The position numbers and the translations under genes are program-made. This document shows, piece by piece, positions 21,689 to 47,633 of a stretch of 64,000 nt of DNA (position 1 is the first letter of the stretch; the number at the start of each line of letters is the position of its first letter). The notes under the pieces were generated by a model that had not been told where the DNA came from, ran no database searches, and was given only the letters and a program-made list of their open reading frames with translations. Origin of the DNA: Dehalococcoidia bacterium (GTDB lineage: Bacteria; Chloroflexota; Dehalococcoidia; Lucifugimonadales; Australimonadaceae). Location of the stretch: contig DAOUJO010000001.1 of NCBI GenBank assembly GCA_034422595.1, positions 491,039-555,038 of the forward strand. Direction: 5' to 3'.

Positions 21689-22621
21689 CTAGCCGTCAAC
21701 CTCAACCTTGTCCACCGCGAATCGCTCACCCTCGGGGGGAGAAGCCTGCCCTTCATTATCCCATCCCCAGCAGACAGCAAAGCCATCTGGACGCAGGCCG
21801 CACGTGTGTGCTCCTCCACTGCTGATGGAGACGAATCTCTCTTCCGGAGGCGATGCCTGTCCATACTCGTCGTCCCCCCAACAGACCGCAGTGCCATCTG
21901 GACGCAGGCCGCACGTATGTCCTCCTCCACTGCTGATGGAAGTCAACTCTTCGTCTGGAGGAGACGTCTGCCCGTGAATGTTGTTGCCCCAACAGACAGC
22001 AGAACCATCCGGACGCAGGCCGCATGTATGCCATACACCAGTACTGATGGAAGTCAACTGTTCGTCCGGAGGGGCAGCACGCCCATCCTGGTCATCTCCC
22101 CAGCAGACGGCACGGCCATCCTCACGCAGACCGCACGTGTGAAACACGCCACTACTGACCAAGACGAACCGCTCTCCACCAGGAGGCTTTCCAAGTCTCA
22201 TCTGGCGGATATCCCAGCAGACGGGGCGACCGTCCTCACGCAGACCGCACGTGTGAAACGCGCCACTACTGATGAAGGCCAACCCTTCGTAAGGAGCATT
22301 CGTCTGCCCGTATCTGTCGCTTCCCCAGCACACGACGCGACCGTCATCGCGCAGGCCGCACGCATGCCCTCCCCCACTGCTGACGGATACCCACTTTTCG
22401 TCCGCAGGAGGCCTCAGGCCAATCCTGCGGGTACCCCAACAGACCGCAACGCCATCCGGACGTAAGCCACACGTATGTGCCAGACCGCTGCTGAGCGTAG
22501 TGAACTGCTCCGACACATGGAAGTCAGCCGGGGCAGAGTCACACCCTCCAAGTGCAAGCGCAAGGAAAGTGAGGGCAGTGAGCGCAGGAACTCGCCGCAC
22601 CATTAGCCAGAAGTACCTCAT
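21689..22621 (-). CDS. RCC1-repeat (seven-blade beta-propeller type) putative lipoprotein
   Basis: ORF 21689..22621. Signal peptide ending LALGGC. Seven units of SSGxxHTCGLRxDGxxVCWG at about 37-aa spacing. Confidence 0.8.
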   Translation of the reverse strand: MRYFWLMVRRVPALTALTFLALALGGCDSAPADFHVSEQFTTLSSGLAHTCGLRPDGVAVCWGTRRIGLRPPADEKWVSVSSGGGHACGLRDDGRVVCWGSDRYGQTNAPYEGLAFISSGAFHTCGLREDGRPVCWDIRQMRLGKPPGGERFVLVSSGVFHTCGLREDGRAVCWGDDQDGRAAPPDEQLTSISTGVWHTCGLRPDGSAVCWGNNIHGQTSPPDEELTSISSGGGHTCGLRPDGTAVCWGDDEYGQASPPEERFVSISSGGAHTCGLRPDGFAVCWGWDNEGQASPPEGERFAVDKVEVDG

Positions 22622-32492: not shown

Positions 32493-34793
32493 CTACGGCT
32501 CGGCGCGGTCGAGCGACCACACCCGGAAGTCGTTGAACTGCGTCTGCTGCCCCGGCAGTCTGCCGCCCTCGAAGAATCCTGAGCCGATGCCGACGCTGCC
32601 GTGCGGCGCGCCATCCTGAAGGTCCAGCACCGACACCTGTTCCCCGTTCACGTAGAGCAGACCCGTTTCGCCGACCACCACGAGCATCAGCGTATTCTGA
32701 GCACCTTCCCTGGTGTTCAGGTTGAGCACTCTGCCCGACCTGCCGGATGCAGTCCCGCCTCCTCCTCCCCGGAGGAAGTGGTTCCACTCCCTGTTGCTGC
32801 CGACGTAGACGCCGTGGTAGCTGTCCGGCCCTGACCCGCGGAACGTGAAGCCGTAGTCCCACCAGCCCGCGCTGCCCTCGTTCGGATTGGTGAACGTCGC
32901 AACCGCGATGAAGTCGCTCGGGCTGCCCGCGGCGAGTGACCGCTCGATGAAACCGTCCTCCGTGTGGTCGAGAACACCCGACCGGTTGCCGATCGGCTGA
33001 GGCTCGTGCACCGAGAACTCGCGGAAGCGCGTCGACCGGCCGGTCACCTCGTTACCGTCGTGATACCCGGTGATCACGGAGATATTGCCTTCCGCCGGGC
33101 CGCCGCTCAGGTCCAGCGTCCCGATCGCTCTGCCGTTGAGGAAGAGCCAGCCCTGGTCTCCCAGAACGGCGAGGCGCAGGTCGTTCACTCCTTCCGAACC
33201 CAGCCACAATCCGGAGGCATCGCCGCTGCCGACGAGCCGGGCCTCGTCGGCGCCGTCCCGCAGGTAGTGGAACCACATCCCGCTGACGTTCTCGACGATG
33301 ACCGCGTGGAAGTTGTTCTGCCCTGCGTCCCTGAACAGGAAGCCGTAGTCCCATCCGCTGATCACGGCGGGATAGGGATTGTGCAACTCCGCTGCAGCAA
33401 CGAAGTCGCTCCGCAGGAGCCCCGCGCCATGCTCTTCGATGAACTCATCCTCGTCATGGTGCAGATAGCCCTCGATCGGCCCGAACGGTCCGGGCGTGTC
33501 GACCACTGTGTCCCGTCCTGTGCCGGGGTCGTCCACCCGCGCGCCCGCCTTCAACGTGGGCAGCACCGCGAGCACCGTCTCCGAACCTATCGCGAAGCCG
33601 ACGCCCTCGACGGGAACTCCCGTGCCCGACTCCCGGATGACGAACGCGGTGATCCCCACGACCTCCCCGCCTGCAGTGAACAGCGCGCCGCCGCTGTTGC
33701 CCACGTTGAGCGAGGCGTCCGTCTGCACCTCCCACCGCTCCAGCGACGCCTCGAAGTTCACGCCGGAGACGATGCCGCGCGTCATCACCGCCGAGTCGCT
33801 GTCCAGCGGGTAGCCCATCGTGAACACGTCGGCCCCCTGCGCCGGACGCGTTGCGCTCAGCTCCACCGCCTGGAACGACTCCGAACAGCAGACGCTCAGC
33901 GCAGCGAGGTCCTTCGTGCCGTCCGAGCCCAGGAGGGTTGCGTCGTACGAACCGCCGTCCTCGGCGAGCACCCGGACGTTGCCGGGGTCGTCCTCGATGA
34001 CGTGGAAGTTCGTCACGACGACCGCCTTACCCGAGTCGTCCACCTCCACGATGACGCCGGAGCCGACGGCACTACCGGTCGCCACCTTCACCACGCTCGG
34101 ACGCACCAGCGCAGCGAGCGCCACGAGGTCGATGGGCTCCGGGGTCGGCGTGGCCGTGTTCTCGGGCGTGGGGTCGGCCGTCGGCGCGGGAGTCGGGGTC
34201 GGCGTGGGTGCCGGACTCGGCGTCGGGGTCGGCGTTGGTATCGGGGTGGCCGTTGCCGTTGGCGTCGGGGTGGGCGTCAGCGTCGGCGTCGCAGTGGGCA
34301 CAAGAGTGGGCGTCGGCGTCGGCGCCGGCTGCGTCGGCGTGGGTGTCGGTCCCGGCAGTTCGCCGCCGAACCCCAGGTAGAAGACGGCTGCCGCTCCGCC
34401 CGCTGCCGCAGCGACCAGAAGCCCAACGATCATGAGGACCAGCGCGACGGTGCAGCAACGTCCGCGCCCATGACGTCGTCCGCCTCCGCCTTCCCCGTCG
34501 CCGTCACCCCCGCCACCGTCGTCCCCGCCGTCTTCGCCCTCTCCGTCGTCGGAGCCGCTCTCCGGAGGTTGCCCCGACAGCGCCCGGAGGCGTGCCTCTT
34601 CATACTGCCTCGCACGCTCGATCTCCATGCGCCGCCGTTCGTTGAGCCGCCGCTCCTCCTCGCGGCGGTGGGCTACGCCCTCCTCTATCTCGCGGCGCAG
34701 TTCCGAGCGGTGCCGGTACTCGGCAAGCTGCTCCTCTTCCGTTGGGCGGTCCCCGTTCGATGTCATGCTCCTCGCTCGATGCCTCCGCGCCAA
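32493..34793 (-). CDS. Membrane-anchored trypsin-like (S1) serine protease with a PT-rich linker and two C-terminal jelly-roll-like domains
   Basis: ORF 32493..34793 (TTG start; ATG 34766 is an alternative). TM helix [21 protein letters not shown]. Protease motifs VVTNFHV and GNSGGALF. Duplicated GWDYGFLFR / WWDYGFTFR domains. Confidence 0.8.
34134..34352 (-). repeat. Coding low-complexity Pro/Thr linker (aa 148-220 of the protease)
   Basis: [62 protein letters not shown]. Confidence 0.8.
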
Positions 34794-34883
34794 AGGAGTG
34801 CCTATCGCAAGACACAGCGTTTAACGCTAACACGAGCCCTGCGGTTTACTGACCGAGGTTGGGCTGCATGCTTTGCCGTACGT

Positions 34884-36740
34884 CTACCGCACGGGTTGGG
34901 TTACGGAGAGTTTGATCAGGAGATCCGAGTTGTCTCTAAACACCACAACGGTATAGACCCCCGGCTTGGTCGCACGGTTTCCCAGGGAAGCAGTGAATCT
35001 GAAAGATGAAGTGTTCTCATCCCATCTGTCAGCCTCTACGTAGACGGCACCGAGATTCGAGTATGAGGAGCCAGCCGGAGCAGGCGGGATGATACCCGCA
35101 ATACGTTCGCCGCACGTCTCGATGAACCCAACGCCGCCGATGCATGCCCCAGAGTTGAGGAACTCTATCTCGCCTATAGTCAGAGGAGCATTGGGCGGTG
35201 TGTAGTAGATATCGATAGTTCTGTGAACGCGAACCCCCGATTCCCGCTTTGATAGAGACAGTGCGAAAGCGCCGCCAAGCGATAAGGACGGCCCGTCGTC
35301 GGCCTCAGCAGCCCCACCTCCGAAGAGTTGAGCAAATGTATATCGCCTACCATCGTACGCAATCCCAATGTTCAGGGTCTGATGTGCCGGATCGAGGATG
35401 TTGCGTCGGTGCCCGGGAGAACCCATGAGACCCTGTTGGAGGCGTACGATGGCATCCCGAGGAGGGGCAAGCCGACAATTCGTAAGAGAAACGCACCCCC
35501 AGTCGGCAGTGTTCTCTTGTGCGTAGCTCGTTCCACCTGTCTCGGAATAAACCTGTGTCGGGTCGCGTCCGTCTATCCACCAATGACCGCTGTAGTTGTG
35601 TTCAAGCATGTCCTCGGCATGGAGTTGTGCTGCTGGATTCGAGCCAAGGGTTACGGGCCGCAGACCGTGTCCTGCTCTGTCCTTGTTCACAAGTTCGAGC
35701 GCGAGCAAGCGCAACTCCTCTACCTCGGAAGCACTCAGCCTCTGCTTACCCACTAACGGCGTCGATGTCGCAGTAGGTCGTGGTCGTAGTGTTGGCGTGG
35801 CAGTCGGTGTTGGACGCGGGGTCGCCGTAGCCGTTGGGGTTGCTGCAGGTGGCGGCGTGGGTGTCGCTGTGGGACAAGGCGGGAGCGGCGTAGAGGTAGG
35901 CGGCCCGAGCGTGGGTGTCACCGTGGGCGGCTCTGGGGTGGGGGTAGGCGTCGGCGTCAGTGGGGCAAGCAGACTCCGGCACTCCGCAACCGGCGCATGG
36001 TTCTGAACTGCCTCGGTGAACAGGCCGCGCTGGTGGCGCAGCCAGATCATCCACGAGAGTGCAGCAGCGCCCTGGCCGGGAACAGGTTCCCGCTCCAGCC
36101 GGTGCGCGTCTACCAGGAACTCGGCGGTCTCGAGGTGCACCTCGAACACGGCCACCCGGCGGCACGCGTCAACCGGCAGCAGGCTGCCCAGGTCGTCCAG
36201 TCCGGTGTCGAACACGGCGAAACTCTCCGCGAGCGCGGCGTCCACCTGCTCCCTGCTCCAGTCGCCTGCCCGCTCGCGCCACTCGTCCGAGAGCGGTTCC
36301 GGCGCCTCCCAGGCGGGCGTTGGTGTTGCTCCGGGAATGGGCGTTGCCAACAGCGCGGGGGTTGGCGTTGCGCCTGGAGCGTCAGGCGTGGGCGTGGGAT
36401 CGGCGCACGGGTATGGCGTCGGAGTGGGCCCAGCGAGCACTGGCGCAGGCGTTGGTGTGGGAGCGCCTTCCTGCCCGGCCTGGGGAGTGGGAGTCGGGGT
36501 CGACAGGAACTCGAACTCGACTGGCAGCCCGTGTTGCGTGTACCAGTAGTAGCCCCCGCCGATGGCCGCGATGAGCAGCAGCAGGGCGAGCCAGCAGCAC
36601 CCGTGCCCGCCCGACGAACCGCCTCCGGGACTGACGACAGTAGCAGTGCGTCCTCTACCACCCCCGCGTGACCGGCCCCCCTGCGGTCCGGGAGCCATAC
36701 CCCGGCGCTCCCGGTAGTACTCCCTGTCCTGGATCGGCAT
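34884..36740 (-). CDS. Membrane-anchored CAP/SCP (PR-1, YkwD-like) domain protein with two PT-rich linkers
   Basis: ORF 34884..36740. TM helix CCWLALLLLIAAIGGG. CAP-type motifs NKDRAGHGLRPV, YSGHWW, GSPGHRRNIL. Confidence 0.8.
   Translation of the reverse strand: MPIQDREYYRERRGMAPGPQGGRSRGGGRGRTATVVSPGGGSSGGHGCCWLALLLLIAAIGGGYYWYTQHGLPVEFEFLSTPTPTPQAGQEGAPTPTPAPVLAGPTPTPYPCADPTPTPDAPGATPTPALLATPIPGATPTPAWEAPEPLSDEWRERAGDWSREQVDAALAESFAVFDTGLDDLGSLLPVDACRRVAVFEVHLETAEFLVDAHRLEREPVPGQGAAALSWMIWLRHQRGLFTEAVQNHAPVAECRSLLAPLTPTPTPTPEPPTVTPTLGPPTSTPLPPCPTATPTPPPAATPTATATPRPTPTATPTLRPRPTATSTPLVGKQRLSASEVEELRLLALELVNKDRAGHGLRPVTLGSNPAAQLHAEDMLEHNYSGHWWIDGRDPTQVYSETGGTSYAQENTADWGCVSLTNCRLAPPRDAIVRLQQGLMGSPGHRRNILDPAHQTLNIGIAYDGRRYTFAQLFGGGAAEADDGPSLSLGGAFALSLSKRESGVRVHRTIDIYYTPPNAPLTIGEIEFLNSGACIGGVGFIETCGERIAGIIPPAPAGSSYSNLGAVYVEADRWDENTSSFRFTASLGNRATKPGVYTVVVFRDNSDLLIKLSVTQPVR
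35757..35963 (-). repeat. Coding low-complexity Pro/Thr linker (aa 260-328 of the CAP protein)
   Basis: [68 protein letters not shown]. Confidence 0.8.
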
Positions 36741-36755
36741 GAACCCTGACTACTC

Positions 36756-37781
36756 CTACCCCAGCGACACCCGTGAGCCCGTGCGCGACGACTCCACCAT
36801 CGCGAGCGTGATCTCGACGACGCGCAGGCCGTCGAGGCCGGTCGCGAGCGGCTCGCCGTTGCCCTCGACTGCGGCGTCGAACGCCTGCACCTGCCTCGTG
36901 TAGAGCGAGAAGGGGTGCTCCGGGTACGCCTCGTCCTCCGTCAGCGCGTCGGTGCGGACCGCGAACGCTCCGGCCTGGTTCATGTCGATGCTGGAATGGA
37001 GTCCGGCGCGTCCGAGCGTGCCGTAGACCGTGACGTCGTTGCGCTCGTAGTCCGGCGTGCGGCGCCCCGTCAGCACCGTCGCGATGATCCCGCTCCTGAA
37101 GCGCAGCGCCAGCGTCACCAGCTCCTCCAACGGCTTCTCCGGGGTGGCGTCGCTCACGGCGGAGACCTCCACAACGTCGTCGTCGAGCACGTAGCGGAGC
37201 AGGTCGGCGCAGTGCACTCCGGTCGCCATGAATGCGCCCGCGCCGATGAGCGACGGATCGTCCCACCACGCCTGCAGGCCCTCACGCGGCGGCGGCGCCT
37301 CCTGGCCCCGCACGCCCCGGCACCAGTCGGCGTGCGCGAACGACACCCTGCCGAGCACGCCGTCAGCCACGAGCGTCCGCAGGCGCCGGTGCCCCTCGTG
37401 CGCACGCAGGTGGAAGCCGACGCCGAGCCGCACGCCCGCCGTGTCGCACGCGTCGATCATGCGCTGCGCATCGTCCACGGAGAGCGCCATCGGCTTCTCG
37501 ACCAGCACGTACTTGCCCGCCTCAGCCGCGCGGACGGTCTGCTCCGCGTGGAGCGCGTTCGGCGAGGCGATGTACACCACGTCCACGGCGGGGTCGCGCA
37601 GCAGCGCGTCGAGGTCGTCGTAGGCGCTGGCCGAGCCGTGCTTCTGCGCGAACGCCTCGGCGCGCCCCATGTCCCGGCTCATCACGGCGGCGAGCGATGC
37701 CCCCTCCGCCTGGTTGATGGCGGGCGCCATCTTGGTGTCCGGGTGCCTTCCTGTGCTGACGATGCCCCAACCGATGGTCAT
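36756..37781 (-). CDS. Gfo/Idh/MocA family NAD(P)-dependent oxidoreductase
   Basis: ORF 36756..37781: IGWGIVSTGRH..., EKPMALS. Confidence 0.88.
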   Translation of the reverse strand: MTIGWGIVSTGRHPDTKMAPAINQAEGASLAAVMSRDMGRAEAFAQKHGSASAYDDLDALLRDPAVDVVYIASPNALHAEQTVRAAEAGKYVLVEKPMALSVDDAQRMIDACDTAGVRLGVGFHLRAHEGHRRLRTLVADGVLGRVSFAHADWCRGVRGQEAPPPREGLQAWWDDPSLIGAGAFMATGVHCADLLRYVLDDDVVEVSAVSDATPEKPLEELVTLALRFRSGIIATVLTGRRTPDYERNDVTVYGTLGRAGLHSSIDMNQAGAFAVRTDALTEDEAYPEHPFSLYTRQVQAFDAAVEGNGEPLATGLDGLRVVEITLAMVESSRTGSRVSLG

Positions 37782-37838
37782 GCGCTATCCCTCCTCCAAG
37801 TTGCGTGGGAGGCAAGGATAGCAGGGGTGACAGTTGGG

Positions 37839-38108
37839 TCAGACGACGCCCTTGGCGCGGAGGAGGGCTATGTAGTCCTCGCGCCCAAGCGTGCAGGCAA
37901 TGGACCTGCGTAGCTCTTCCTCGCTCAAACGCAACTGCTGCCGGATGCTATGGAACATCGGGAGGTCGCCCGAACTCTTCTTTGAACGTCTCGTCCGGAC
38001 GACGCGCTTGCCGTCGACCTCGAGCCAGGCCAGCAGGTCTCTGCTGTCTCTGGTCTCGAAGCCGAACTTCCTGATGATCAGGTCGAACTCACGGGCGGTG
38101 AGGGGCAT
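37839..38108 (-). CDS. HicA-like (YcfA family) putative toxin
   Basis: ORF 37839..38108. REFDLIIRKFGFETRDS...DGKRVVRTRRS pattern. The usual catalytic His context was not seen. Confidence 0.5.
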   Translation of the reverse strand: MPLTAREFDLIIRKFGFETRDSRDLLAWLEVDGKRVVRTRRSKKSSGDLPMFHSIRQQLRLSEEELRRSIACTLGREDYIALLRAKGVV

Positions 38109-38418
38109 CGGCTCTGCGCAACTTGCGGACGAGCGTCGCGTGGACGGCCTGCAGGTCGGAACCGAGCCGTTCCTTGTCCGCGTCGAGGGTGAAGTAGAGC
38201 TCCGCGATGGCCGCCTGCAGGTCGGCGAGCGCCTCCGGGAGCGTGTCGCCGTAACCGAACTCGTTGATCTCCGGCGCTTCCAGGACGACTTGGCCTGCCT
38301 CGGTCATGCTCTTGACTGCGACAGGCTCAACGACGAACAGCCGGTCATCCTCCAGCCCATCAAGCGTGAACTCGGCTGGGGTCGCCGACGTAGCGGTCTG
38401 TTTGCCTGTCTGTGTCAA
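38089..38418 (-). CDS. HicB-like (UPF0150-type) putative antitoxin
   Basis: C-terminal part of ORF 38089..39015. TTG 38418 preceded by GGGAGG. VLEAPEINEFGYGDTLPEALADLQAAIAELY. 20-nt overlap with the downstream gene. Confidence 0.45.
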   Translation of the reverse strand: MTQTGKQTATSATPAEFTLDGLEDDRLFVVEPVAVKSMTEAGQVVLEAPEINEFGYGDTLPEALADLQAAIAELYFTLDADKERLGSDLQAVHATLVRKLRRADAPHRP

Positions 38419-38504
38419 CGCCCTGCCTCCCACCGGCTGCGGCACCCGGTCTGCACACACGCTACATCCGTGGCGCGGCCGTGGCAATGCGCTCGTGTCG
38501 CAGC

Positions 38505-39428
38505 CTACCCCTCGATGTAGCGATAGGCCGCGAGGGCTGCCGCAACACCGTCGCCGACGGCGTTGGCGAGCTGACGGTCCGAGAACTGCCGCACGTCGCC
38601 TGCCGCGAACACGCCCGGAACGTTCGTCTCCATCTGGAGGTTGGTCAGCACGTGGCCTGCCGCATCGAGCTCCAGCACGCCCTGCATGAACTCGTTCACC
38701 GGGTGGAAGCCGATGAAGATGAACACGCCCTGCGTGGTGTGCTCCGTGACCTCGCCCGTCTTGAGATTGCGCAGCACCGCGCTGTTCACGTCGCCGTTGC
38801 CCCTGATCTCGTCGACCACCGTGTCCCAGACGAACTCCATCTTCGGGTTGTCGAACGCCCGCTGCTGCAGGATCCTGCTCGCGCGCAGCGCGTCCCGGCG
38901 GTGCACGACCGTCACCTTGTTCGTCATGCGCGTCAGGTACAGCCCCTCGTCGATCGCGGCATCGCCGCCGCCCACCACCGTCACGTCCATGCCACGGAAG
39001 AAGTTGCCGTCGCACGTCGCGCAGTAGGAGACGCCCTTCCCCCAGTACTCCACCTCGCCCGGCACGCCGAGCTGGTTGTGCTCACCGCCGGTCGCGATGA
39101 TGACCGCCTTGCCCGTGTACTCGGCGTCCTCGCAGACGACGTGCTTCACGTCGCCCGCCACGTCGAGGCTGACGACGGTGTCGTACTCGAACTCGACGCC
39201 GAAGCGCTCGGCCTGCTTCTCGTACAGCATCGCCAGCTCTGGGCCGTCGATCGGCTCCGGGAAGCCGGGGTAGTTCTCGATCTCGCCGGTGAGCAGGATC
39301 TGCCCGCCCACCGCCTTCTTCTCGATGATGAGCGTCTTGAGCATCGCCCGCACCGAGTAGATGGACGCGGCGAGGCCGGCTGCGCCTCCGCCGATGATGA
39401 TGACGTCGTATTGCGGTTCGTTGGACAT
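38505..39428 (-). CDS. trxB: Thioredoxin-disulfide reductase
   Basis: Within ORF 38505..39440, ATG 39428. DVIIIGGGAAGLAA, CATCDG. Confidence 0.93.
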   Translation of the reverse strand: MSNEPQYDVIIIGGGAAGLAASIYSVRAMLKTLIIEKKAVGGQILLTGEIENYPGFPEPIDGPELAMLYEKQAERFGVEFEYDTVVSLDVAGDVKHVVCEDAEYTGKAVIIATGGEHNQLGVPGEVEYWGKGVSYCATCDGNFFRGMDVTVVGGGDAAIDEGLYLTRMTNKVTVVHRRDALRASRILQQRAFDNPKMEFVWDTVVDEIRGNGDVNSAVLRNLKTGEVTEHTTQGVFIFIGFHPVNEFMQGVLELDAAGHVLTNLQMETNVPGVFAAGDVRQFSDRQLANAVGDGVAAALAAYRYIEG

Positions 39429-39441
39429 ATTCACCCCCATC

Positions 39442-39483
39442 CTAGACGCGGTAGCGGAACCGCCCCTCCAGTTGGTCGCGGTT
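39442..39483. repeat. Left 42-bp direct repeat, an orphan copy of the AAA+ gene 3-prime end
   Basis: ctagacgcggtagcggaaccgcccctccagttggtcgcggtt is 40/42 identical to 43542-43583. It would encode NRDQLEGRFRYRV followed by a stop on the minus strand. Confidence 0.8.
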
Positions 39484-39532
39484 GAAGTTCTCTATTCCCA
39501 TCATACTCCCCACGGTACCCACTCGAAGCCAA

Positions 39533-42385
39533 TCATGAACGAATGAGACCCCTATCCAGTTCCTTGAGCTGATGGTCCGGGGCAGTAAGGCGAGCACGAG
39601 CCCAATCTCGAACGTCTTCCTCGTGCGTGAACAAAATCACTTGGATGTCCTTGTCCTCACTAATCACGAGCAGCGTGTCGAGAATGGCCTTCTTTCGCTG
39701 GGCATCGCAGGCAGCGACCGCATCGTCCAAGATGAGCGGACAAGGCTCCTCACGAGTGAGGTGTTGCGCCAGTGCGAGTCTAAGGAGGAGGTATATCTGC
39801 TCGGCGGTTCCTCTTGAGAGGAGGGCTGCATTTCGCCAGCGTTTGTTAGCACCAGCCAAGTCAACGGCCAACGACTTCGGGTTGACTCGGCAATCGACAT
39901 ATCGTTCGTCCGTTACAAACGGGAGCCATTGGAGGACAGTTTCTCTGAGAATGGGGGCTATGTCGCGGTGAACACGCTCCTGAGCAGATTCAAGGAACTT
40001 AGCGGTGAGTTGGATGGTGCTGCTAAGTTCTGCGAGTCGGCGGTGGTCACGCTCGGCATTCGCAAGCGCGTCTTCGGCATCAGCGACGCTTGATACTGTA
40101 CGCGCGAACTCGGTGAGCTCTCCGGTCGCTTCTGTGTGATTGGACATAGCCTCGTGCAACTCTCCCAGAGCACTCTTTAAGTCACTTTGGGTGGGCTGCT
40201 CGGCACGAGCATACGCAAGCGCCTCACTCGCGACACGAGGTGCGACTGATTGCGCCTCCTGCAGTAGACGTTCGACCTCGTCCTCCACATCCTGAAGCGA
40301 TCGTTCGCCCAACATCTGCTGCAGCACATCCCACTGTTGCATTCGTTCATTTGCTTCAGTAACGCTCTGCGACCGGCGCAGAAGCCATTGGTTGAGCGCT
40401 GCCACAGTGGCGTCAGGTTCATCTGCATCAGCGCCGATTGCTGCAACTGCCGCCCGCAACCTGGCATGTGCTATATCAACCCTGCGGCTGTCTTCCAAGA
40501 AGAGTTTGTCAGCGCTGTTGCGTTCGGCCCGTTGCCGCTCCCAGTCAATGCGTTGCCCACTTGTACGATCCTCCAGTCCTGCCAGTTGTTCCCGTGTGAG
40601 GTTCCTTGTCCGAGCGGCGGCAAGTAGATTTTCGTCGGTTCCCGCAACAAGTCGGGTTGCTACTTCAGCAGACCTCCTGGCCTCGCCTTCAATGACCCCA
40701 AGTGATTGTTGCGCTAACAGTCCCTGGAGTTTGTCCCACAGCAAAGAGAGCCTTCCATACTCACCGAGTCGAGCTTCCCGGACTTGCAGCCAATCGTGCA
40801 ACGTCTTAACTGCTGTGTGATCGTCGGATGCGGTCGCACCGCATTCGGCCGCAGTTTCGTGGAGCCTAGTCAGTACAGTTTCTCTGCGCAGGACGTCATC
40901 CTGGTAGCGACGTTCCTCCTCCATGCGGACATTCAAGCGTTGTTCGATGCTGCGACGGTTCGTTTCAAAGAGGAATTGATCGTGGGCGGGGGGCCGCATA
41001 CCCACGAGGGCGACGACCCCGGCCGCGGCCCCCGCGGCCATAAGCCCTGCACCCAGTATGAGGAGGTCAGGCAGGATGAACGCTATCCCGAGACCTGCCG
41101 CTATGGCGACCCCTGACAGTATGAGTAGAGGCAGTCTGCGGCCACCCGGGGCCGACCGGGCAGCATTAGTCCGCGCGTCAAATGCGGTGAGTTCCTCGCG
41201 TATCTCTGCCGAATTTTGGCCGACAGGTTCCTGGGGCCTTGCAAGCGATTCGAAGTCCTTCAGCACATCGCGGACACGATTGGCCAAGTGTTCTTCGTCA
41301 GGAGAAGTTCGCGGGGGGCCGTCCGGGAACTGACTGCTTAGTTCCCTCGCACTCATGTAGCGTTCCTTCGCAGCCTCTGCCTCCTTCTCAGCAACAGCGG
41401 CGCGCAGTGCGGCCAATTCTCGTTCGGCATTCTCAATATGCCGAGTGAGTGCATCTGCAGTAAGCCCACCGGGTTCGATCGGTTGGGGCCGAGAACTCCA
41501 TGCCTCTAAGGCAGTGGTTACCTGCTCAAACAGCGCATCATGCCCGGGGGAAGGATGTGGCGGACCATCGGGAAACAGGTTGCTCAGCCGGCGAATCTCT
41601 TCAAGGCGCTCCCGCGCATGAGCAGCAGCCGCCTCAGCAATCACAGCACTTATCGCATCCGCTTCGCTCTGGAGCTCCTGTGCTCTTCGTTCCAAGAGGT
41701 CTACTGCCGTGCGCCGCCTGATGTACTCCTCGCGTTGCGCTCTCGCATCATCCAATGCCCTACGAGCCTGCTGTTCCGCAACTTGTGATTGTCGGAGTGG
41801 TTTGGTCGGCGACCGACTCGTGCCAACAACATCTCGCAGATAGCGGTCTAGACGTTGAAGGGCGGCAGCTGCCGTGGAGTCTGCGCCGGCAGTCGCTGCA
41901 GCTCGTTGCATATCGTCCTGAAGCATCGCCGGGTTATCGAGGATGCCTAATATGTCGGCTTGCCGAACGCATGCCGTATTGAGGAACGTACGACGGTTCA
42001 GTCCGAGCCAACGCGATCCGTCAGGTGCGCCCTCAAATAGTATCTCGTTCCTGTAGTCCCGGCCTGCAAGATGCGTGTCCCTCACAGTGCTCGATCTGTT
42101 CACCAAGTCATGCCTGAGTTCCACGCTGCGACCATCGGCGAGGGTGATTACGACGTTGACTTCCCAGGCTGTACCATCCCAAGGCTTGTGGCGTTCCGCG
42201 AACTCGCGTACATCTTTGCTGTTGCCCTGAGCGCGGCGCATCCCGCAGAGTCCCGCGTAAAGAGCGGCGTGCCAGGAGGACTTCCCCGCCTCGTTGGGGC
42301 CATAGATGATGTTCATCCCAGGGGCGAGTTCTAATACATCTCTTAGCGGACCAAATGCAGGAGCATCTATCTTGTCGAAGCGCAT
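39533..42385 (-). CDS. Rad50/SbcC-like AAA ATPase with long coiled coils and two central TM helices (YhaN-like architecture)
   Basis: ORF 39533..42385. Walker A GPNEAGKSS, signature LSRGTAEQ, Walker B PLILDDA, H-loop LFTHEED. Mid-protein LPLLILSGVAIAAGLGIAFILPDLLILGAGLMAAGAAAGVVALVG. Confidence 0.85.
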   Translation of the reverse strand: MRFDKIDAPAFGPLRDVLELAPGMNIIYGPNEAGKSSWHAALYAGLCGMRRAQGNSKDVREFAERHKPWDGTAWEVNVVITLADGRSVELRHDLVNRSSTVRDTHLAGRDYRNEILFEGAPDGSRWLGLNRRTFLNTACVRQADILGILDNPAMLQDDMQRAAATAGADSTAAAALQRLDRYLRDVVGTSRSPTKPLRQSQVAEQQARRALDDARAQREEYIRRRTAVDLLERRAQELQSEADAISAVIAEAAAAHARERLEEIRRLSNLFPDGPPHPSPGHDALFEQVTTALEAWSSRPQPIEPGGLTADALTRHIENAERELAALRAAVAEKEAEAAKERYMSARELSSQFPDGPPRTSPDEEHLANRVRDVLKDFESLARPQEPVGQNSAEIREELTAFDARTNAARSAPGGRRLPLLILSGVAIAAGLGIAFILPDLLILGAGLMAAGAAAGVVALVGMRPPAHDQFLFETNRRSIEQRLNVRMEEERRYQDDVLRRETVLTRLHETAAECGATASDDHTAVKTLHDWLQVREARLGEYGRLSLLWDKLQGLLAQQSLGVIEGEARRSAEVATRLVAGTDENLLAAARTRNLTREQLAGLEDRTSGQRIDWERQRAERNSADKLFLEDSRRVDIAHARLRAAVAAIGADADEPDATVAALNQWLLRRSQSVTEANERMQQWDVLQQMLGERSLQDVEDEVERLLQEAQSVAPRVASEALAYARAEQPTQSDLKSALGELHEAMSNHTEATGELTEFARTVSSVADAEDALANAERDHRRLAELSSTIQLTAKFLESAQERVHRDIAPILRETVLQWLPFVTDERYVDCRVNPKSLAVDLAGANKRWRNAALLSRGTAEQIYLLLRLALAQHLTREEPCPLILDDAVAACDAQRKKAILDTLLVISEDKDIQVILFTHEEDVRDWARARLTAPDHQLKELDRGLIRS

Positions 42386-43503
42386 CAGAGCACGTCCAAG
42401 TCTTCGCGCCCATCAAGGGCGCGAAGGCCAGTAATCAGAAGTCTGCGCTCAACTTCGGGGTCAAGACGCGCACTTAGCACATCTCTCACAAACTGACCGC
42501 GTACGGTAGCCTCTTCGCGGATTACCTCCACCTCATATCCCTGCCGGAGTTCCTCGGTGTGTATCTGTGTCGCATCGAAGAACTGACTCAGCACATCGCG
42601 CAGAGCAACCTCTGGCAAGTCTAGGGCTGGCGCCAGATCGCCTGTAACGGCAAGCCGAGCAATGCCCTTCAGCCCCTGCGCCACCTCGGCAAGCCTTTCG
42701 CGCACGTCCTGCTGGGACGTGCAGCCGGTAACGTCGAGGGTGATGTCATGAACCTGGGTAACTGCCACGGAGCGCCTCTCCCGTGTGACCCTGCCATTCG
42801 ACGCAATCGTAGCCAAGACCGGCCCACGCACGAGGCTAGCAGTCCTATCCTCTCCGAATTGCAGTGGGGCAGGGTTGCCCGGATATGTATGGCGTTCAGC
42901 GTCCTTGGGACGATGGTAGTGACCAAGGAAGGCGTGATCTAGTCCCGCATTTACGATGTCTTCGGTGTCAAAGGCAGCGTGAGGTTCTTTGCCGCTTCCT
43001 TGTTCGGAGAGCCACGAGAGCTCTGCTCCGTGGAAGAGCGCCACATGGACTCCAATACCTTCCGTCCGAAAGCCACTTAGGAAGTTACCGGTGTTGGCAG
43101 GCGCGCAATGGGCAGCCCCCCAGAGCGTGAGCCGATCAGCGAGAGGTAGAGGCTGCAGGCACGACTCTTTGAAAACGTGGACGTTGCTGCTCCACTCGCA
43201 GGTCGAGTAGACGCTGCCAGGCGCGTAGTAGTCATGGTTCCCAGGAGCAATATAGACCCGAACGGGACTAAGGTCGCTGAAGACTGTCTTGAGGAATTCG
43301 GCGGTGTCGGGCGTTACTCGGTCGTGTTCGTAGAGGTCTCCGGCACAGAAAAGGGCCTCTGCGTTAGTCTCACGGACCAATCCTGCTATGGAGAGCAGGG
43401 TCTCGCGAAGAGCCTGTCGCCTTCCGCGAGCAACGTCGCCCGTAGCGCCGCTCCAAGCGAATGCCGAATCAAGATGAAGGTCAGCAAAGTGGACAATCCT
43501 CAT
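42385..43503 (-). CDS. Mre11/SbcD-like calcineurin-type metallophosphoesterase (YhaO-like)
   Basis: ORF 42385..43503: FADLHLD, GDLYEH, GNHD, GHYH. Its stop overlaps the start of the ATPase gene. Confidence 0.85.
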   Translation of the reverse strand: MRIVHFADLHLDSAFAWSGATGDVARGRRQALRETLLSIAGLVRETNAEALFCAGDLYEHDRVTPDTAEFLKTVFSDLSPVRVYIAPGNHDYYAPGSVYSTCEWSSNVHVFKESCLQPLPLADRLTLWGAAHCAPANTGNFLSGFRTEGIGVHVALFHGAELSWLSEQGSGKEPHAAFDTEDIVNAGLDHAFLGHYHRPKDAERHTYPGNPAPLQFGEDRTASLVRGPVLATIASNGRVTRERRSVAVTQVHDITLDVTGCTSQQDVRERLAEVAQGLKGIARLAVTGDLAPALDLPEVALRDVLSQFFDATQIHTEELRQGYEVEVIREEATVRGQFVRDVLSARLDPEVERRLLITGLRALDGREDLDVL

Positions 43504-43541
43504 TGTGAAACCCTATCACCGGAACCAAGCTTGAATAGGGT

Positions 43542-43583
43542 CTAGACGCGGTAGCGGAACCGTCCCTCCAGCTGGTCGCGGTT
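43542..43583. repeat. Right 42-bp direct repeat, the functional 3-prime end of the AAA+ gene
   Basis: ctagacgcggtagcggaaccgtccctccagctggtcgcggtt. Exactly 4100 bp from the left copy. Confidence 0.8.
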
Positions 43584-44981
43584 CAGGCGGCGGTTCAGGT
43601 GCAGCCCCTCCAGCACGAACTCGGCCGCCGACGCCGCCTCCGGCCCGCTGCTGCCCGTGCCGAGTTTGCTCAGCGCGCCCGCGAACCCCTCCAACTGACC
43701 CATCTCCTCCAGGTAGACGCTGGCCGGCAGGTCCGCGCCGGTGTCGAACGTCTGCCCGGCCTCGAACGCCATCACGAGCTCGTCGAGTTCGTGCGGCTCG
43801 AAGTGGCGGTCGAACACGTTGAGCAGGGCGCGCTTGATGAGCTCGTCGACGATCTTGGCCTCGCGCCCCTCCTCCATCGTCTCCAACTCCACCTTGCCGA
43901 GCGTCGAGGCGATGATGAACGCGAAGTCCGTGATGCGCGGGACGGCCTGCCCCTCGCCCTGCGAGATGGCGCGCCGCAGCGCGTTGGCCGCGACCGTTTC
44001 GTAGTTGGCGATGGAGACGCGCACGCTCACGCCGGAGCGCTGGTTGATCTCCGGGTGCCTGCGCGCGAGCCCTGTGAACTCCGCGATGAGCTCCTTGATG
44101 TACTCCGGCACGACGATGGGCTCCTCCGCGCCCGGGAACTCGTTCCGCTCCTCGTCCATGATGGAGATCTCCTGTGCGATCTCCCTGGGGTAGTGCGTGC
44201 GTATCTGCGCGCCGTAGCGGTCCTTCAGCGGCGTGATGATGCGCCCCCGGTTCGTGTAGTCCTCCGGGTTCGCGCTCGCGACCACGAGCACGTCGAGCGA
44301 CAGCCGCACGAGGTAGCCCTTGATCTGGACGTCGCGCTCCTCCATCAGGTTGAAGAGTCCCACCTGGATGCGCTCCGCGAGGTCCGGCAGCTCGTTGATG
44401 CAGAAGATGCCCCGGTTGGTGCGCGGGATGAGCCCGTAGTGGATGGCGAGCTCGTCCGAGAGGTAGCGCCCCTCCGCGATGCGGATCGGGTCGACGTCGC
44501 CCACGAGGTCCGCGATCGAGATGTCGGGCGTCGCGAGCTTCTCGCCGTAGCGCCGGTCGCGCCCGATCCACTCGATGGGCGTGTCGTCGCCCTCCTCCTC
44601 GATGAGCTCGATGGCGTAGCGCGAGATGGGGGCGAGCGGGTCGTCGTTCACCTCGCTGCCCCGCACGATGGGTATCTCGTCGTCGAGCAGCTCCACGAGC
44701 GCGCGGATCATGCGCGACTTCGCCTGTCCGCGCTCGCCGAGCAGGATGATGTCCTGCCCCGCGAGGATGGCGTTCTCCACCTGCGGGATGACCGTGTCCT
44801 CGTAGCCCACGATGCCGGGGAAGACCGGCTCGCCGTTGCGCAGACGGCTCATGAGATTGCGGCGCAGTTCGTCGCGGACGGACGTGACGGCGTAGCCGCT
44901 CTCGCGCAGCGCGCCGAGCGTCGACGGTCGTCCGTTCCTGGAGGGTTTCCTGGTCGCGGGCTTCTTTCGCGTGGTAGCCAT
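43542..44981 (-). CDS. ChlI/MoxR-like AAA+ ATPase (magnesium-chelatase-like)
   Basis: Within ORF 43542..45245, ATG 44981 (MATTRKKPATRK...). Walker A LLGERGQAKS, Walker B IFCINELPDL. Confidence 0.8.
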   Translation of the reverse strand: MATTRKKPATRKPSRNGRPSTLGALRESGYAVTSVRDELRRNLMSRLRNGEPVFPGIVGYEDTVIPQVENAILAGQDIILLGERGQAKSRMIRALVELLDDEIPIVRGSEVNDDPLAPISRYAIELIEEEGDDTPIEWIGRDRRYGEKLATPDISIADLVGDVDPIRIAEGRYLSDELAIHYGLIPRTNRGIFCINELPDLAERIQVGLFNLMEERDVQIKGYLVRLSLDVLVVASANPEDYTNRGRIITPLKDRYGAQIRTHYPREIAQEISIMDEERNEFPGAEEPIVVPEYIKELIAEFTGLARRHPEINQRSGVSVRVSIANYETVAANALRRAISQGEGQAVPRITDFAFIIASTLGKVELETMEEGREAKIVDELIKRALLNVFDRHFEPHELDELVMAFEAGQTFDTGADLPASVYLEEMGQLEGFAGALSKLGTGSSGPEAASAAEFVLEGLHLNRRLNRDQLEGRFRYRV

Positions 44982-45061
44982 GGGCGCTCCTGGGGAGGGA
45001 TCGCGCCGGAGACCGGCGCCTCCTCTCATTCTACACAAGCGAGGGTGGGCGGCGGCGCGGG

Positions 45062-47089
45062 CTAGCTGACGATGCGGCGCTTGCGGTTGTTGAGGTAGTC
45101 GACCAGCACGTACTGGCCCAGCTTGCCGGGCGAAGTGTAGAGCGCGCGGCCATTGTTGATGCGGGTGACGCGGTCGATGAAGTCCAGCAGGTAGTAGCTC
45201 GTCTCCAGCATGAAGGTGTTGATGGTGATGCCTTCGGCGGTGCAACGGCGGACCTCGCGCAGCGTCTCATGGATGGTGCGGTAGGTCGGGGGGTAGTTGA
45301 AGTAGGAGCGCGTCCCTTCCAGGTGGGCCGTGGGCTCGCCGTCCGTGATCATCAGGATCTGCCGCGAGCAGTTCTTGTAGGGGGCGAGCAGCTTCCGCGA
45401 CATGGCGAAGGCGTGCTGCATGTTCGTGCCGGAGACCCACATGTTCCACGTGAGCGTCGGGAGGTCGTCGGTCTTGATGGGAACGGCGTAGTCGGAGAAG
45501 CCCACCATCCAGAAGCGGTCGCGGGGGAACTTCCCGCGGATGAGCGCTTCCAGTGCGAGCGCGACGCGCTTGGCGGCGCCCCATGAGCCGAACATCCCCA
45601 TCGACTTGCTCTGGTCGATGAGCAGGACCGTGGCGGCCTGCACCACGTGCTCGGTGCGCTTCACCTCGAAGTCCTGGATGCCGACCTTCACCGGCGTGCC
45701 GACGCCCTGCCGCTCGATGGCGTTCATCACGGTGCGGTGCAGGTGTATCTCGAACGGATCGCCGAACTCGTAGGGCTTGGTCTCGTCCGTGTGCTCGCCG
45801 CCGGTGCCCCGCACCGCCAGCTCGTGGTCGCCGGCGCGGCCCTTGCGAAGGTCGCCGAAGAGGTCGCGCAGCACCTTCTGGCCTATCTTCCGCACGGCTG
45901 CGGGCGTCAGCTCCAGCCGGTCGCCGTCGCGGCGCAGGTAGCCCGCCTCCTCCAGCCGCTTCGCGATTTCGGCGAGCCGGTCCAGGTCCTGGCGGGCCTC
46001 CTCGCCGAGCAGCGCTTCGAGCATCTCCGCGTCGAGTTCGTCGAGGTCGCCCCGGCGCATCGCCTGCCTGATCTGCGCCTCGAGGTCGTCCATCGACTGC
46101 AGCTCGCCCATGACGTTCATCGCTTCTTCCAGGGTCATGTTCTCCTCGCCCTGGAAGAGACGCTGCTCGGCGAACTCGTTGAACGGGAGCATCTGGCCGA
46201 GGTTCGCGGCGAGCTCGGCCAGCTCGTCGGCGGTCTCGGGGTCCATGGCGGCGTTCATCGCCTCGAACAGTTCGCGCCGCTGCCCCGGCGACATGCTGTC
46301 GAGCAGGCTCTGCATCTGCCCCATCTGGCGGGCGAGCATCTCCATGAGCTCGTCGAAGCTGCGCGGCGGGTCGTCGCCGAACATGGCGCCCCACTTGTCC
46401 ATGAAGCCCTCGAAGTCCGGCTCCAGGCCGTCGAGCTTGTCCCGGATCATCTGGTTGAGGTCGCGCAGCATCTCGCGCATCAGGGCCATCTGCTGCGGGT
46501 CCATGTTCTCTATCTGCTGCCGCATCTCCGAGGCGACGGAGCCGAGCATCTCCTTGCGCAACTCGTCCATGAGCTCCTGGAACTTGCGCTGCGCCTCGGG
46601 GTCGATGAAGTCGAAGTCCTGGAGTTCGCGGAGCGCGCCCGCCGTGCTCTCGGGGAGCTGGTCGAGCCGTTCGCGGTTGCGGTCGGCCCGCTGCTTGAAG
46701 AGGTCGCGCAGCCGACCGGCCTGCTCCGCCTCCTCGCCGCTCATGTTCGCGAGGTTGTCCTCGATCTCGCCGAGGCGGCGCTCCATCCCTGCGCGCTCGG
46801 TCTGGAGCACGTCGTCGAGCCGCTCCTTGAGGTCGCGCATGACGGAGTCGGGGTCGTAGCGGTCGAGCGTCTGGTTGCGGCGCGAGCGCAGGCGTTCGAG
46901 GAGGTCGTCGAGTCCGGGAAGGCGGGTATCGTCGCCGCTGGCGCCGCGGCGGATGAGGTCGCGGAGTGCGCGGCGGATGTCGCCGTGGTCGATGACGTCC
47001 TCGGCCAGTGCGTCGAGGAGCGCATCGGCGTCGGCTTCGAACGGCTCCTGCGAGCCGTCCCACTGCGAGTACCGGTAGAGCCTTGCCAC
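45062..47089 (-). CDS. von Willebrand factor A (VWA) domain protein with a long acidic helical N-terminal region
   Basis: ORF 45062..47089. MIDAS-type LLIDQSKSMG near the C-terminus. Paired with the AAA+ gene. Confidence 0.8.
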   Translation of the reverse strand: MARLYRYSQWDGSQEPFEADADALLDALAEDVIDHGDIRRALRDLIRRGASGDDTRLPGLDDLLERLRSRRNQTLDRYDPDSVMRDLKERLDDVLQTERAGMERRLGEIEDNLANMSGEEAEQAGRLRDLFKQRADRNRERLDQLPESTAGALRELQDFDFIDPEAQRKFQELMDELRKEMLGSVASEMRQQIENMDPQQMALMREMLRDLNQMIRDKLDGLEPDFEGFMDKWGAMFGDDPPRSFDELMEMLARQMGQMQSLLDSMSPGQRRELFEAMNAAMDPETADELAELAANLGQMLPFNEFAEQRLFQGEENMTLEEAMNVMGELQSMDDLEAQIRQAMRRGDLDELDAEMLEALLGEEARQDLDRLAEIAKRLEEAGYLRRDGDRLELTPAAVRKIGQKVLRDLFGDLRKGRAGDHELAVRGTGGEHTDETKPYEFGDPFEIHLHRTVMNAIERQGVGTPVKVGIQDFEVKRTEHVVQAATVLLIDQSKSMGMFGSWGAAKRVALALEALIRGKFPRDRFWMVGFSDYAVPIKTDDLPTLTWNMWVSGTNMQHAFAMSRKLLAPYKNCSRQILMITDGEPTAHLEGTRSYFNYPPTYRTIHETLREVRRCTAEGITINTFMLETSYYLLDFIDRVTRINNGRALYTSPGKLGQYVLVDYLNNRKRRIVS

Positions 47090-47123: not shown

Positions 47124-47615
47124 CTACCCGCCGTCCGGCGGGAACGGGTCGTCCTCGCTCGCCCGCGCCTGCGACTCCACTATGGAGATGCCCCGGCTCG
47201 TCTTGTCGCCCCAGAGGCTCTTGACGTACGTGAGCACCGCGACGATCTCGTCGTGGCTGAGCCGGTCGCCGAACGCCGGCATGGCGCTCTTGAAGCTGCT
47301 GAAGCGCGGGTCTTCGAACTCCTGCCCGCCCTTGCTGACGACGCGGTAGAGGAGGCCGTCGCCGTGGTGCCAGGTGTGGCCGTCGCCGTTCAGGGGCGGC
47401 GGGGGCAGCGTGCCGTCGTCCTTCTCGATGTGCCAGTTCGCCTGGCCCTCGCCTCCGGCGCCGTGACACGTGGCGCAGTTCGCCGCGAACAGCTCCTGCC
47501 CCCTCGACACGACCGCAGGATCGTAGGGAGACGACGACGTGCAGGCGGTCATCAGGAGGAAGGCGAGCGGGAGCGCGGCGAATGCGACGAGACGGGCGCG
47601 AGCCACGTTAACCAA
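47124..47615 (-). CDS. Class I c-type cytochrome, putative lipoprotein
   Basis: ORF 47124..47615. Signal peptide with LLMTAC. Heme site CATCHG. Confidence 0.8.
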   Translation of the reverse strand: MVNVARARLVAFAALPLAFLLMTACTSSSPYDPAVVSRGQELFAANCATCHGAGGEGQANWHIEKDDGTLPPPPLNGDGHTWHHGDGLLYRVVSKGGQEFEDPRFSSFKSAMPAFGDRLSHDEIVAVLTYVKSLWGDKTSRGISIVESQARASEDDPFPPDGG

Positions 47616-47633
47616 CGCTGTCCCCGCGACCCC

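Follow-up and report, generated by a model that had tools for sequence, protein, structure and literature searches.

Results

Organization of the AAA+-trxB locus

We analysed a 64,000-nt stretch of the genome of an uncultured Dehalococcoidia bacterium of the Chloroflexota (contig DAOUJO010000001.1; hereafter the window), in which a cassette of 4.1 kb lies between a gene coding for an AAA+ ATPase and trxB, the thioredoxin reductase gene, and is bracketed by two copies of the end of the AAA+ gene. Coordinates are those of the window unless a locus label (L001, L002, etc., for the loci or contigs that were compared, most of them from relatives) is given. All the genes discussed are on the minus strand, in the order VWA, AAA+, MP, SMC-like ATPase, trxB and GFO. 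The VWA-domain partner gene (45062-47089), whose orthologue matches the Pfam families VWA_2, Mb0984_helical and Rv0959_3rd, is upstream of the target gene (43542-44981), which codes for a 479-aa AAA+ ATPase (AAA_5, ChlI/MoxR-like) that is 99% identical to P0001, the AAA+ protein encoded on L001, where the site is empty. The cassette holds two genes only: MP (42385-43503), coding for a 372-aa SbcD/Mre11/YhaO-like metallophosphoesterase, and a gene coding for a 950-aa SMC/Rad50-like ATPase of the YhaN/SbcE type (39533-42385), the start of which is overlapped by the MP stop codon. The trxB gene (38505-39428; Pfam Pyr_redox_2, E = 5e-48) is now 4.1 kb from the AAA+ stop codon and is followed by the GFO/IDH/MocA oxidoreductase gene (GFO; 36756-37781).

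A repeat search identified two direct repeats of 42 nt, at 39442-39483 and 43542-43583, which are 40/42 identical (95%) and 4100 bp apart, and a self-BLAST showed this pair to be the sole non-local direct repeat of the whole window (E = 1.8e-11). Sequence likeness beyond the 42-mer ends abruptly on either side. When read on the minus strand, both copies code for NRDQLEGRFRYRV and a stop codon (13 codons and the stop), and the two mismatches, CAG/CAA (Gln) and GGA/GGG (Gly), are both synonymous. The attL-like copy at 43542-43583 is the resident one and forms the last 13 codons and the stop of the AAA+ gene. The attR-like copy at 39442-39483 is an orphan followed by the native 13-nt spacer, which matches those of L168 and L001, and by the conserved trxB start (ATG TCC, 39428); a second in-frame ATG, an alternative start for trxB, is located at 39440, 1 nt past the orphan stop. 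These results bear out an initial annotation of this DNA, which had reported the repeats, their spacing and their abrupt ends, had assigned the right copy to the true end of a ChlI-like AAA+ gene and the left copy to an orphan with the same 13 residues and a stop, had read both mismatches as synonymous third-position changes, and had placed the orphan stop 13 nt upstream of the trxB ATG. An assembly artefact was rejected, as the same structure was found in independent assemblies (L006, L007 and a 1.63-Mb contig carrying P0121).

The composition of the insert (39484-43541; 4058 bp) was then compared with that of its surroundings. Its GC content was 58.35%, versus 67.9% for the rest of the window, while the minimum among 260 other 4-kb windows, which served as the composition control (mean GC 67.7%, sd 1.15), was 64.0%. 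The tetranucleotide distance of the insert was 0.42, versus a maximum of 0.25 elsewhere in the window. The GC content at third codon positions (GC3) was 0.58 for the ATPase gene and 0.61 for MP, versus 0.94-0.96 for VWA, AAA+, trxB and GFO. The lower GC content between the repeats, estimated in the initial annotation, is thus a large and significant difference, and the 4.1-kb segment is a horizontally acquired cassette of foreign composition.

Exact empty sites in close relatives

The initial annotation had proposed VWA-AAA+-trxB as the ancestral order, split by the insert, and had suggested looking for an empty site in related genomes. Such a site, exact to the base, is present in L168, where the AAA+ tail runs straight into trxB. 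L168 is the closest relative found, with a synonymous divergence (dS) from the window of 0.10 for the AAA+ gene and 0.085 for trxB, and an AAA+ 3' part that is 97% identical to that of the window. Its single AAA+ tail is identical at 42/42 positions to the resident copy of the window, and the sequence next to this tail, GATGGGGGTGCATATG, agrees at 15/16 bases with the spacer that adjoins the window orphan.

Nothing lies between AAA+ and trxB in L001, L002, L168 and L170, which are contigs with near-identical AAA+ proteins. The cassette is absent too from L003, L004 and L169, from which VWA is likewise absent. In the distant relatives L089-L094 (AAA+ protein identity of 69-76%) the AAA+, trxB and GFO genes are contiguous, and the insertion is therefore the derived state, since this arrangement extends to distant relatives as well. 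The trxB start is located 13-34 nt past the AAA+ stop at empty sites and, in those of the window's own sub-lineage, an in-frame ATG is found 1-6 nt past this stop. The exact empty site in a close relative confirmed a real insertion into an ancestral VWA-AAA+-trxB arrangement; judged by its sequence, L168 would be either the pre-insertion state or the product of a precise excision.

Occupied sites and history of the cassette

L007 has the AAA+ gene, both cargo genes, its own orphan tail and trxB, with junctions as in the window and a repeat spacing of 4097 bp. L006 has the left junction as in the window, and its contig stops within the ATPase gene. The two cargo genes are also present at the same AAA+/trxB junction in L005 and L172, which come from more distant hosts (78% AAA+ identity for L005).

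Comparison of the window and L007 showed an identity of about 95% through AAA+, of 67-85% from exactly the 42-mer, and of 95-100% from the trxB start. The dS between the two was 0.21 for AAA+ and 0.13 for trxB, versus 1.90 for MP and 2.48 for the ATPase gene, and the L007 cargo is thus far older (dS of 1.9-2.5) than the host split (dS of 0.13-0.21). L007 is nearer to the window than L006 when AAA+ is compared (dS of about 0.20 and 0.32, respectively), whereas L006 is nearer when MP is compared (1.0, versus 1.9 for L007), and L006 and L007 pair together when the ATPase gene is compared (1.28, versus about 2.2-2.4). The relationships of the hosts conflict with those of the cargo, and those of MP with those of the ATPase gene. 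Because of this incongruence and of the contrast in dS, the cassettes are seen to form a pool of old, recombining alleles that is tied to the AAA+/trxB site and is not inherited with the host. The 3' part of the window AAA+ gene is 93-100% identical to that of L001 per 60-nt block right up to the repeat, and no donor-derived divergent tract was seen in AAA+ next to the insert by comparison with L001 and L168, an observation that bears on the last transfer only and not on the founding event.

These comparisons also bear on the possibility that the cassette was always located between AAA+ and trxB and that a precise deletion from one repeat to the other produced the empty relatives. Such a deletion would yield the exact L168 sequence, and the junction is occupied by the cassette even in hosts as distant as L005 and L172. 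We nevertheless consider this history very unlikely, as AAA+, trxB and GFO adjoin one another in most close relatives and also in L089-L094, which are more distant, as the GC3 of the cargo is about 0.6 when that of the host is about 0.95, and as the dS of the cargo is about 10 times that of the host, with incongruent relationships. On account of this dS contrast and incongruence, the copies of the window, L006 and L007 cannot descend vertically from one resident copy. Deletion would also leave the origin of the duplication unexplained, and the small present sample suggests that occupied lineages are nested in empty ones, with cargo trees unlike the host trees.

The orphan copy and the cassette ends

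The orphans of the window and L007 are identical at 35/42 positions, and the 28-nt block that precedes them at the right end of the cassette (39484-39511, minus strand), GGGGAGTATGATGGGAATAGAGAACTTC in the window and GGAGAGTATGATGGAACTAGAGAGCTTG in L007, is conserved at 23/28 positions. Third codon positions of the cargo are just 40-57% identical between cassettes, and the first 20 nt or so of non-coding DNA at each cassette end look saturated. Each orphan matches, at 41/42 positions, the living AAA+ tail allele of a lineage other than that of its host, namely L002 for the window orphan and L170 for the L007 orphan. The two L007 copies differ at 5/42 positions, in an allele-like pattern. Within each genome the 3' half is lineage-specific and common to both copies (GRFRYRV and GTCTAG for the window; GGYRYRV and GTGTAG for L007), and the differences between the copies are confined to the first 24 nt.

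The orphan thus looks, from these matches, like a foreign tail allele and not like a drifted local copy. The initial annotation had expected the mismatches if one copy came from a homologous gene of another lineage, as in the attL and attR sites of an element; the foreign origin agrees with the match to L002, while the attL/attR identity of the copies is plausible but unproven. The orphan is more than a passive scar and is maintained. As the orphans are kept, are allele-like and share their 3' half with the resident copy of the same genome, the gene-end copy would be either renewed by a crossover in the tail each time the cassette moves, or under selection. The diversity of the AAA+ tail was also considered as a possible recombination scar, and was set aside: no 42-nt block is more diverse than the tail (0.132, versus about 0.08), but its excess is mild.

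The lineage-specific 3' half that both copies share within each genome would also be expected of a target-site duplication, produced by a transposase, a casposase or another nuclease through staggered cuts 42 nt apart. No transposase or Cas1-like gene was found in the insert by Pfam, however, and no terminal inverted repeats were seen at the cassette ends by inspection. Furthermore, the 5/42 differences between the L007 copies match the living allele of L170 and are not those of drift. A 42-bp target-site duplication is not known from any prokaryotic DNA transposon, and we regard this origin as highly improbable, the least probable of those considered here.

The 28-nt block contains a GGAG, an in-frame ATGATG and a TATGAT hexamer. 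Together with the orphan it forms a putative mini-ORF (open reading frame) of 20 codons (39442-39504, minus strand), MMGIENF followed by NRDQLEGRFRYRV and a stop, which would end at the orphan stop, 1 nt before the in-frame trxB ATG; its L007 equivalent is MMELESL followed by NRDELAGGYRYRV and a stop. Read-through from the ATPase gene into the orphan was rejected, since the coordinates place the two frames one apart. A -10-like hexamer is present before trxB at every occupied site for which that end is available (TATGAT in the window and L007, TACAAT in L005 and L172). The left non-coding end of the cassette (43504-43541, minus strand) carries a TGATA(G/A)GGT motif about 8 nt before the MP ATG, which is kept in L006 and L007 when the first 20 nt or so of this end are not, and which may be the extended -10 element of a near-leaderless transcript. 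Neither the end-block hexamer nor the left-end motif passed the consensus promoter scan, and a scan of the right end for consensus promoters and terminators, as well as its RNA folding, gave nothing above shuffled controls.

Because the trxB start is 13-34 nt past the AAA+ stop at empty sites, with an in-frame ATG 1-6 nt past it, trxB is probably co-transcribed with AAA+ at these sites, perhaps with translational coupling between the two genes. Acting as a leader, the orphan and the 28-nt block probably keep trxB expressed once it has been severed from the operon.

Cargo genes

The ATPase matched Pfam AAA_27 (PF13514) with 30.9 bits for a cut-off of 22, and also AAA_23 and SMC_N, while its Rad50/SMC-like NCBIfam matches were all below cut-off. 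MP matched Pfam Metallophos (E = 3e-13) and, over its N-terminal part and below cut-off, the TIGR00619 sbcd model. A hydrophobic stretch, LPLLILSGVAIAAGLGIAFILPDLLILGAGLMAAGAAAGVVALVG, was found by eye in the middle of the translated ATPase. The gene order, the AAA_27 head and this hydrophobic central segment match those of the YhaO/YhaN (SbcF/SbcE) type, to which the pair would belong. No full-length match was obtained with the PADLOC defence models, which gave weak or partial matches only, for the ATPase (LmuB, 1.6e-14; mad3, 5.6e-13) and, for the nuclease, a single partial effector match (0.0018).

Homologues of MP with 60-68% identity were found in metagenome-assembled genomes (MAGs) of Dehalococcoidia, Gemmatimonadota (Candidatus Palauibacter), Gammaproteobacteria and Acidobacteriota. 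Searches of plasmids and phages by tblastn with the nuclease gave matches of at most 32% identity, with no close relatives of the cargo, and scans of genome contigs and metagenomes gave best matches of 68% for the cargo and 75% for AAA+, with no gain of close host relatives. The cargo behaves as a discrete unit, since L009 and L010 are 78.5% similar in nucleotides over a stretch that begins at the nuclease ATG and ends about 20 nt short of the ATPase stop, with unrelated flanks.

In other genomes the cargo often has mobile or defence-like genes around it. In L010 these are a Fic gene and the gene of a type II restriction-modification methylase (Eco57I-type). In two unrelated genomes with homologues of 60-70% identity, it is found beside DDE_Tnp_1, Transposase_mut, GmrSD and Macro domains, with a broken ATPase gene (L171, 7164-12494), and beside two inverted IS6/IS240 copies, IS110 and ParE (L013, 1154-4846).

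Other duplications and insertions at the locus and in relatives

We then looked at other duplicated gene ends. L010, a MAG from Dehalococcoidia (OZ251500.1), has the cargo family between the two copies of a 184-nt direct repeat (5748-5931 and 9988-10171; 96.7% identical, 4240 bp apart), in which the 5' untranslated region (UTR) and the first 55 codons or so of an 858-aa SbcC-like gene located downstream are duplicated. This repeat takes in the last codons of the cargo ATPase gene, and 3/5 of its coding mismatches are synonymous. In L002, a close relative, an orphan copy of 122 nt of the AAA+ 5' UTR and first 40 codons or so (8606-8727, versus 9979-10097; 92% identical, with one 3-nt indel) lies 1.37 kb upstream of the real AAA+ start and is fused to a new 81-aa ORF directly behind the gene for a 1703-aa DEAD/UvrD helicase; a DUF2442/DUF4160 gene pair is located between this orphan 5' end and the real AAA+ gene. 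The 42-mer of the window and the 122-nt and 184-nt repeats share chance-level 8-mers only. Apart from L010, none of the 30 other loci compared had flanking repeats around the cargo. L013 has a 313-nt repeat, with IS6 and IS110 transposases in the same region.

The VWA/AAA+ junction is variable too, with different large helicase cargos in L002 (3139-9923) and L168 (3709-9291), while four relatives have no VWA gene at all, their AAA+ gene being intact (around 9900-10000 in L003, L004, L169 and L170). In the gap between trxB and GFO, about 670 nt of the window (37828-38498) are absent from L001 and contain two small overlapping ORFs on the minus strand (about 38089-38400 and 37839-38108), which resemble a HicB/HicA-type antitoxin-toxin pair by eye, had no match in Pfam and have no flanking repeats; L168 and L169 have other small ORFs at the same spot. 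About 2 kb of L001 (5349-7414), between Rieske and cytochrome c genes, have no counterpart in the window (about 47568-47630) and carry a 250-aa ORF and a gene coding for a Trypsin_2 protein.

Two other regions of the window have an atypical composition. The gene coding for a CAP-domain protein (34745-36755; GC3 of 0.67 overall) contains a low-GC stretch (0.56-0.58 at 34750-35750) and is highly variable in relatives, with about 1.85 kb lacking a counterpart in L001 and only 73% identity to L003. A tandem repeat with a 111-nt period (21765-22478) is located inside the gene of a 310-aa RCC1-repeat protein (21689-22621), which has an atypically low GC3 of 0.60.

REP-like hairpins (TTCCCGC, 4 nt, GCGGGAA; often in arrays of about 38-41 nt) are scattered in the intergenic DNA of the Dehalococcoidia loci L009, L008 and L169. 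A second hairpin type, CCCTCTCCC...GGGAGAGGG, occurs in the same Dehalococcoidia, with two copies in the AAA+/trxB gap of L169. The hairpin units are at 3594-3783, 10066-10119 and 12777-12970 of L009, at 4812 and 12307 of L008, and at 7400-7520 and 11488-11640 of L169.

Search for a recombinase

As stated in the initial annotation, the insert carries no integrase or transposase: Pfam found Metallophos and AAA_27/SMC_N only. The cassettes of L005, L007 and L172 and the assembled part of that of L006 have the same two genes only and no recombinase. The families matched in the scanned ORFs of the window are of housekeeping and transport types (for example hemA, MoxR, tRNA synthetases, GroES/EL and nitrite reductase). 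Scans of viral contigs with the 42-mer and with the 28-nt block turned up no attP-like sequence. Since the window contains no tRNA or tmRNA gene, and since Rfam gave a single chance-level match on 37500-45500, the site is not an RNA-gene att site. Hijacking of the Xer/dif system was set aside, because the 42-mer, judged by eye, is unlike a dif site and because the insertion is not at the terminus.

Discussion

Origin and mobility of the cassette

The cassette described here is a gene-end-restoring integrative cassette without a recombinase of its own. The best reading, which we hold tentatively, is that of an att-flanked element resembling cis-mobilisable ones and served by a recombinase in trans. 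We rank this reading first because the duplication ends at the stop codon and rebuilds the gene, because the junctions are fixed and identical in deeply diverged cassettes, because a block on the element side of the repeat is conserved, and because the ssrA islands of Dehalococcoides offer a precedent; an att/integrase mechanism for the repeats themselves is plausible but unproven. The initial annotation had taken the element to be either decayed or mobilised in trans. Decay is unlikely to be the whole story, as divergent cassettes share their junctions and as the orphans outlast neutral sites.

The proposed insertion would occur by a crossover within the last 42 bp of the AAA+ gene, which would serve as a common core like that of tyrosine-integrase elements restoring the 3' end of the gene they target. 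The incoming DNA would bring its own copy of the AAA+ gene end, so that AAA+ would stay complete and the orphan would be left on the far side, before the spacer and trxB. A recombinase encoded elsewhere in the genome or by a helper element would both integrate and excise the cassette, and the excised circle would read from the end block through the 42-mer to ACCCTATTC at the left end. Once inserted, cassettes would also pass between lineages by homologous recombination through AAA+ and trxB. The 28-nt block and the orphan, as a possible 20-codon leader ending at the native stop by the trxB start, would support the expression of trxB.

Several observations weigh against a recombinase acting in trans. 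No integrase, resolvase or transposase family was found across the 64-kb window in the ORFs scanned, which were those with a gene-like codon composition, and the loci fetched from relatives have no annotated integrase or transposase up to 10 kb from the site. No helper element sharing the 42-mer or the end block came to light, and the viral contigs gave no match to either of them. The inverted-repeat structure of the 42-mer is weak (six-mers AACCGC and GCGGTT, 14 nt apart). Occupied sites with both ends available are two only, the window and L007. In L005 and L172 there is no recognisable orphan and the left spacer is different and shorter; with a higher cargo GC3, of 0.70-0.82, these cassettes look like older, fixed copies, of which such a GC3 and a missing orphan would be expected. 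A strict site-specific exchange at a fixed point would not give arms that are host alleles, yet both orphans are 1 base from living alleles. The duplications of 122 nt (L002) and 184 nt (L010), which differ in length and lack the motif of the 42-mer, fit homology-driven events better.

The main rival is a recombinase-free origin, which explains most of the data about as well and which we judge less likely, though it is to be taken seriously. The junction would have been made once and then passed on by homologous exchange via the flanking AAA+ and trxB genes, and the cassette would persist as an old, recombining polymorphism of presence or absence and of alleles. The founding junction could have been made by homology-facilitated illegitimate recombination ('end displacement'), with AAA+ as the anchor and an illegitimate join 42 nt before the recipient stop, or by Campbell-type integration of a circle through the short homology of the tail. 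The orphan and the 28-nt block would be kept as a promoter, leader or translational coupling for trxB. The hallmark of end displacement is present, with the old gene end orphaned downstream of the insert and followed by the native spacer and trxB.

Apart from the absence of a recombinase from the window scans and from the relatives' loci, this origin draws support from the neighbourhood, which is an integrase-free mosaic of indels among genomes about 95% identical in DNA, with variation at the VWA/AAA+, AAA+/trxB and trxB/GFO junctions, in the CAP gene and in the presence of VWA. It agrees with the incongruent relationships between host and cargo and within the cargo, with duplicated gene ends of 42, 122 and 184 nt without a common motif, and with a -10-like hexamer before trxB at occupied sites, when empty sites leave 13-34 nt only. 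Integrase-less orphaned 3' ends have been described at type VI secretion system (T6SS) and Rhs loci (PMC5361080), and many transfer hotspots have no mobile-element genes and recombine in the flanking core genes (PMC5635113). However, 42 bp is near the lower limit for RecA-dependent exchange, and a duplication that ends exactly at a stop codon and leaves the gene rebuilt is the usual signature of an att site. The 3' part of AAA+ has no donor-derived divergent tract (93-100% identity to L001; 97% to L168). A passive orphan should decay over a dS of about 2, so that this model needs selection on the orphan, and the promoter scan of the right end was empty.

A further reading, to which we give a low probability, is that of a new kind of recombinase-free, homology-guided mobile unit. 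With its short gene-end copy as a homing arm, it would enter and leave the site through crossovers in this arm made by host recombination, perhaps aided by its own Mre11/Rad50-like nuclease-ATPase, and it would bring a mini-leader to maintain expression of the essential gene downstream. If this were true, the cargo bracketed by 184 nt in L010 would be a second instance of the same strategy.

Comparison with known systems

Mycobacteriophage L5 reportedly has a common core of 43 bp in a tRNA gene. The cassette resembles L5 and other tyrosine-integrase elements in its core of about 40 bp ending at a gene end, its restored target, its orphan on the far side and its exact empty site. Unlike these elements, it has no integrase and no clear inverted pair of core-type binding sites, and its orphans track living host alleles.

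The ssrA islands of Dehalococcoides are bounded by a 20-bp repeat of the gene 3' end, with a conserved element-side motif adjoining the repeat, and 15 of them lack an integration module and were proposed to be cis-mobilisable and moved by a related element (PMC3146451). The cassette shares with these islands (cis-mobilisable elements, CIMEs) its phylum, its low GC content, direct repeats that duplicate a single-copy gene's 3' end, an element-side motif kept beside the repeat and, for some of the islands, the lack of an integrase. However, their target is the tmRNA gene and their repeat 20 bp, whereas the cassette has a protein-coding AAA+ gene as target, a repeat of 42 bp and two genes only. 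Moreover, no integrase-bearing sibling was found at or near the site in the relatives examined.

End displacement at T6SS effector-immunity and Rhs loci (PMC5361080) is likewise an integrase-free insertion by a conserved upstream gene that leaves the old end orphaned downstream. The displaced ends are there long variable toxin tips with immunity genes, whereas only 42 nt are concerned here, the junction is common to cassettes that have diverged deeply, and the gene is left as it was once rebuilt. Hotspots without mobile elements (PMC5635113) show the same presence or absence and allelic turnover between core genes, the same lack of mobility genes and the same incongruence, but their model predicts no duplicated flanking gene end.

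As for the cargo, the SbcE/SbcF (YhaN/YhaO) family of Bacillus subtilis has a hydrophobic central domain between the coiled coils instead of a zinc hook (PMC2811018). The two pairs are alike in having the nuclease gene directly upstream of that of an SMC-like ATPase of about 950 aa, with an AAA_27 N-terminus and a hydrophobic central domain. The B. subtilis pair is a chromosomal factor of double-strand-break repair and competence, whereas the pair described here is accessory and horizontally mobile, with homologues of 60-68% identity in other phyla, some of them beside restriction-modification, transposase or toxin genes.

Implications

The element is of a largely familiar kind; it is set apart by its missing recombinase, by alleles that are deeply diverse although the junctions are fixed, and by a gene-end copy that is maintained. 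Mobility genes are absent from many hotspots of gene gain, and the entry of DNA at such sites is poorly understood. The AAA+/trxB site is a tractable case, as it is small and has an exact empty site, base-precise junctions, diverged cassettes that share them and a gene-end copy that outlasts neutral DNA. It could decide between a hidden recombinase acting in trans and short-homology recombination, and could show whether elements pay for their insertion by restoring the expression of the gene that they displace. The occurrence of YhaN/YhaO-type pairs as accessory cargo across phyla, in contexts resembling defence islands, is a lead on their function.

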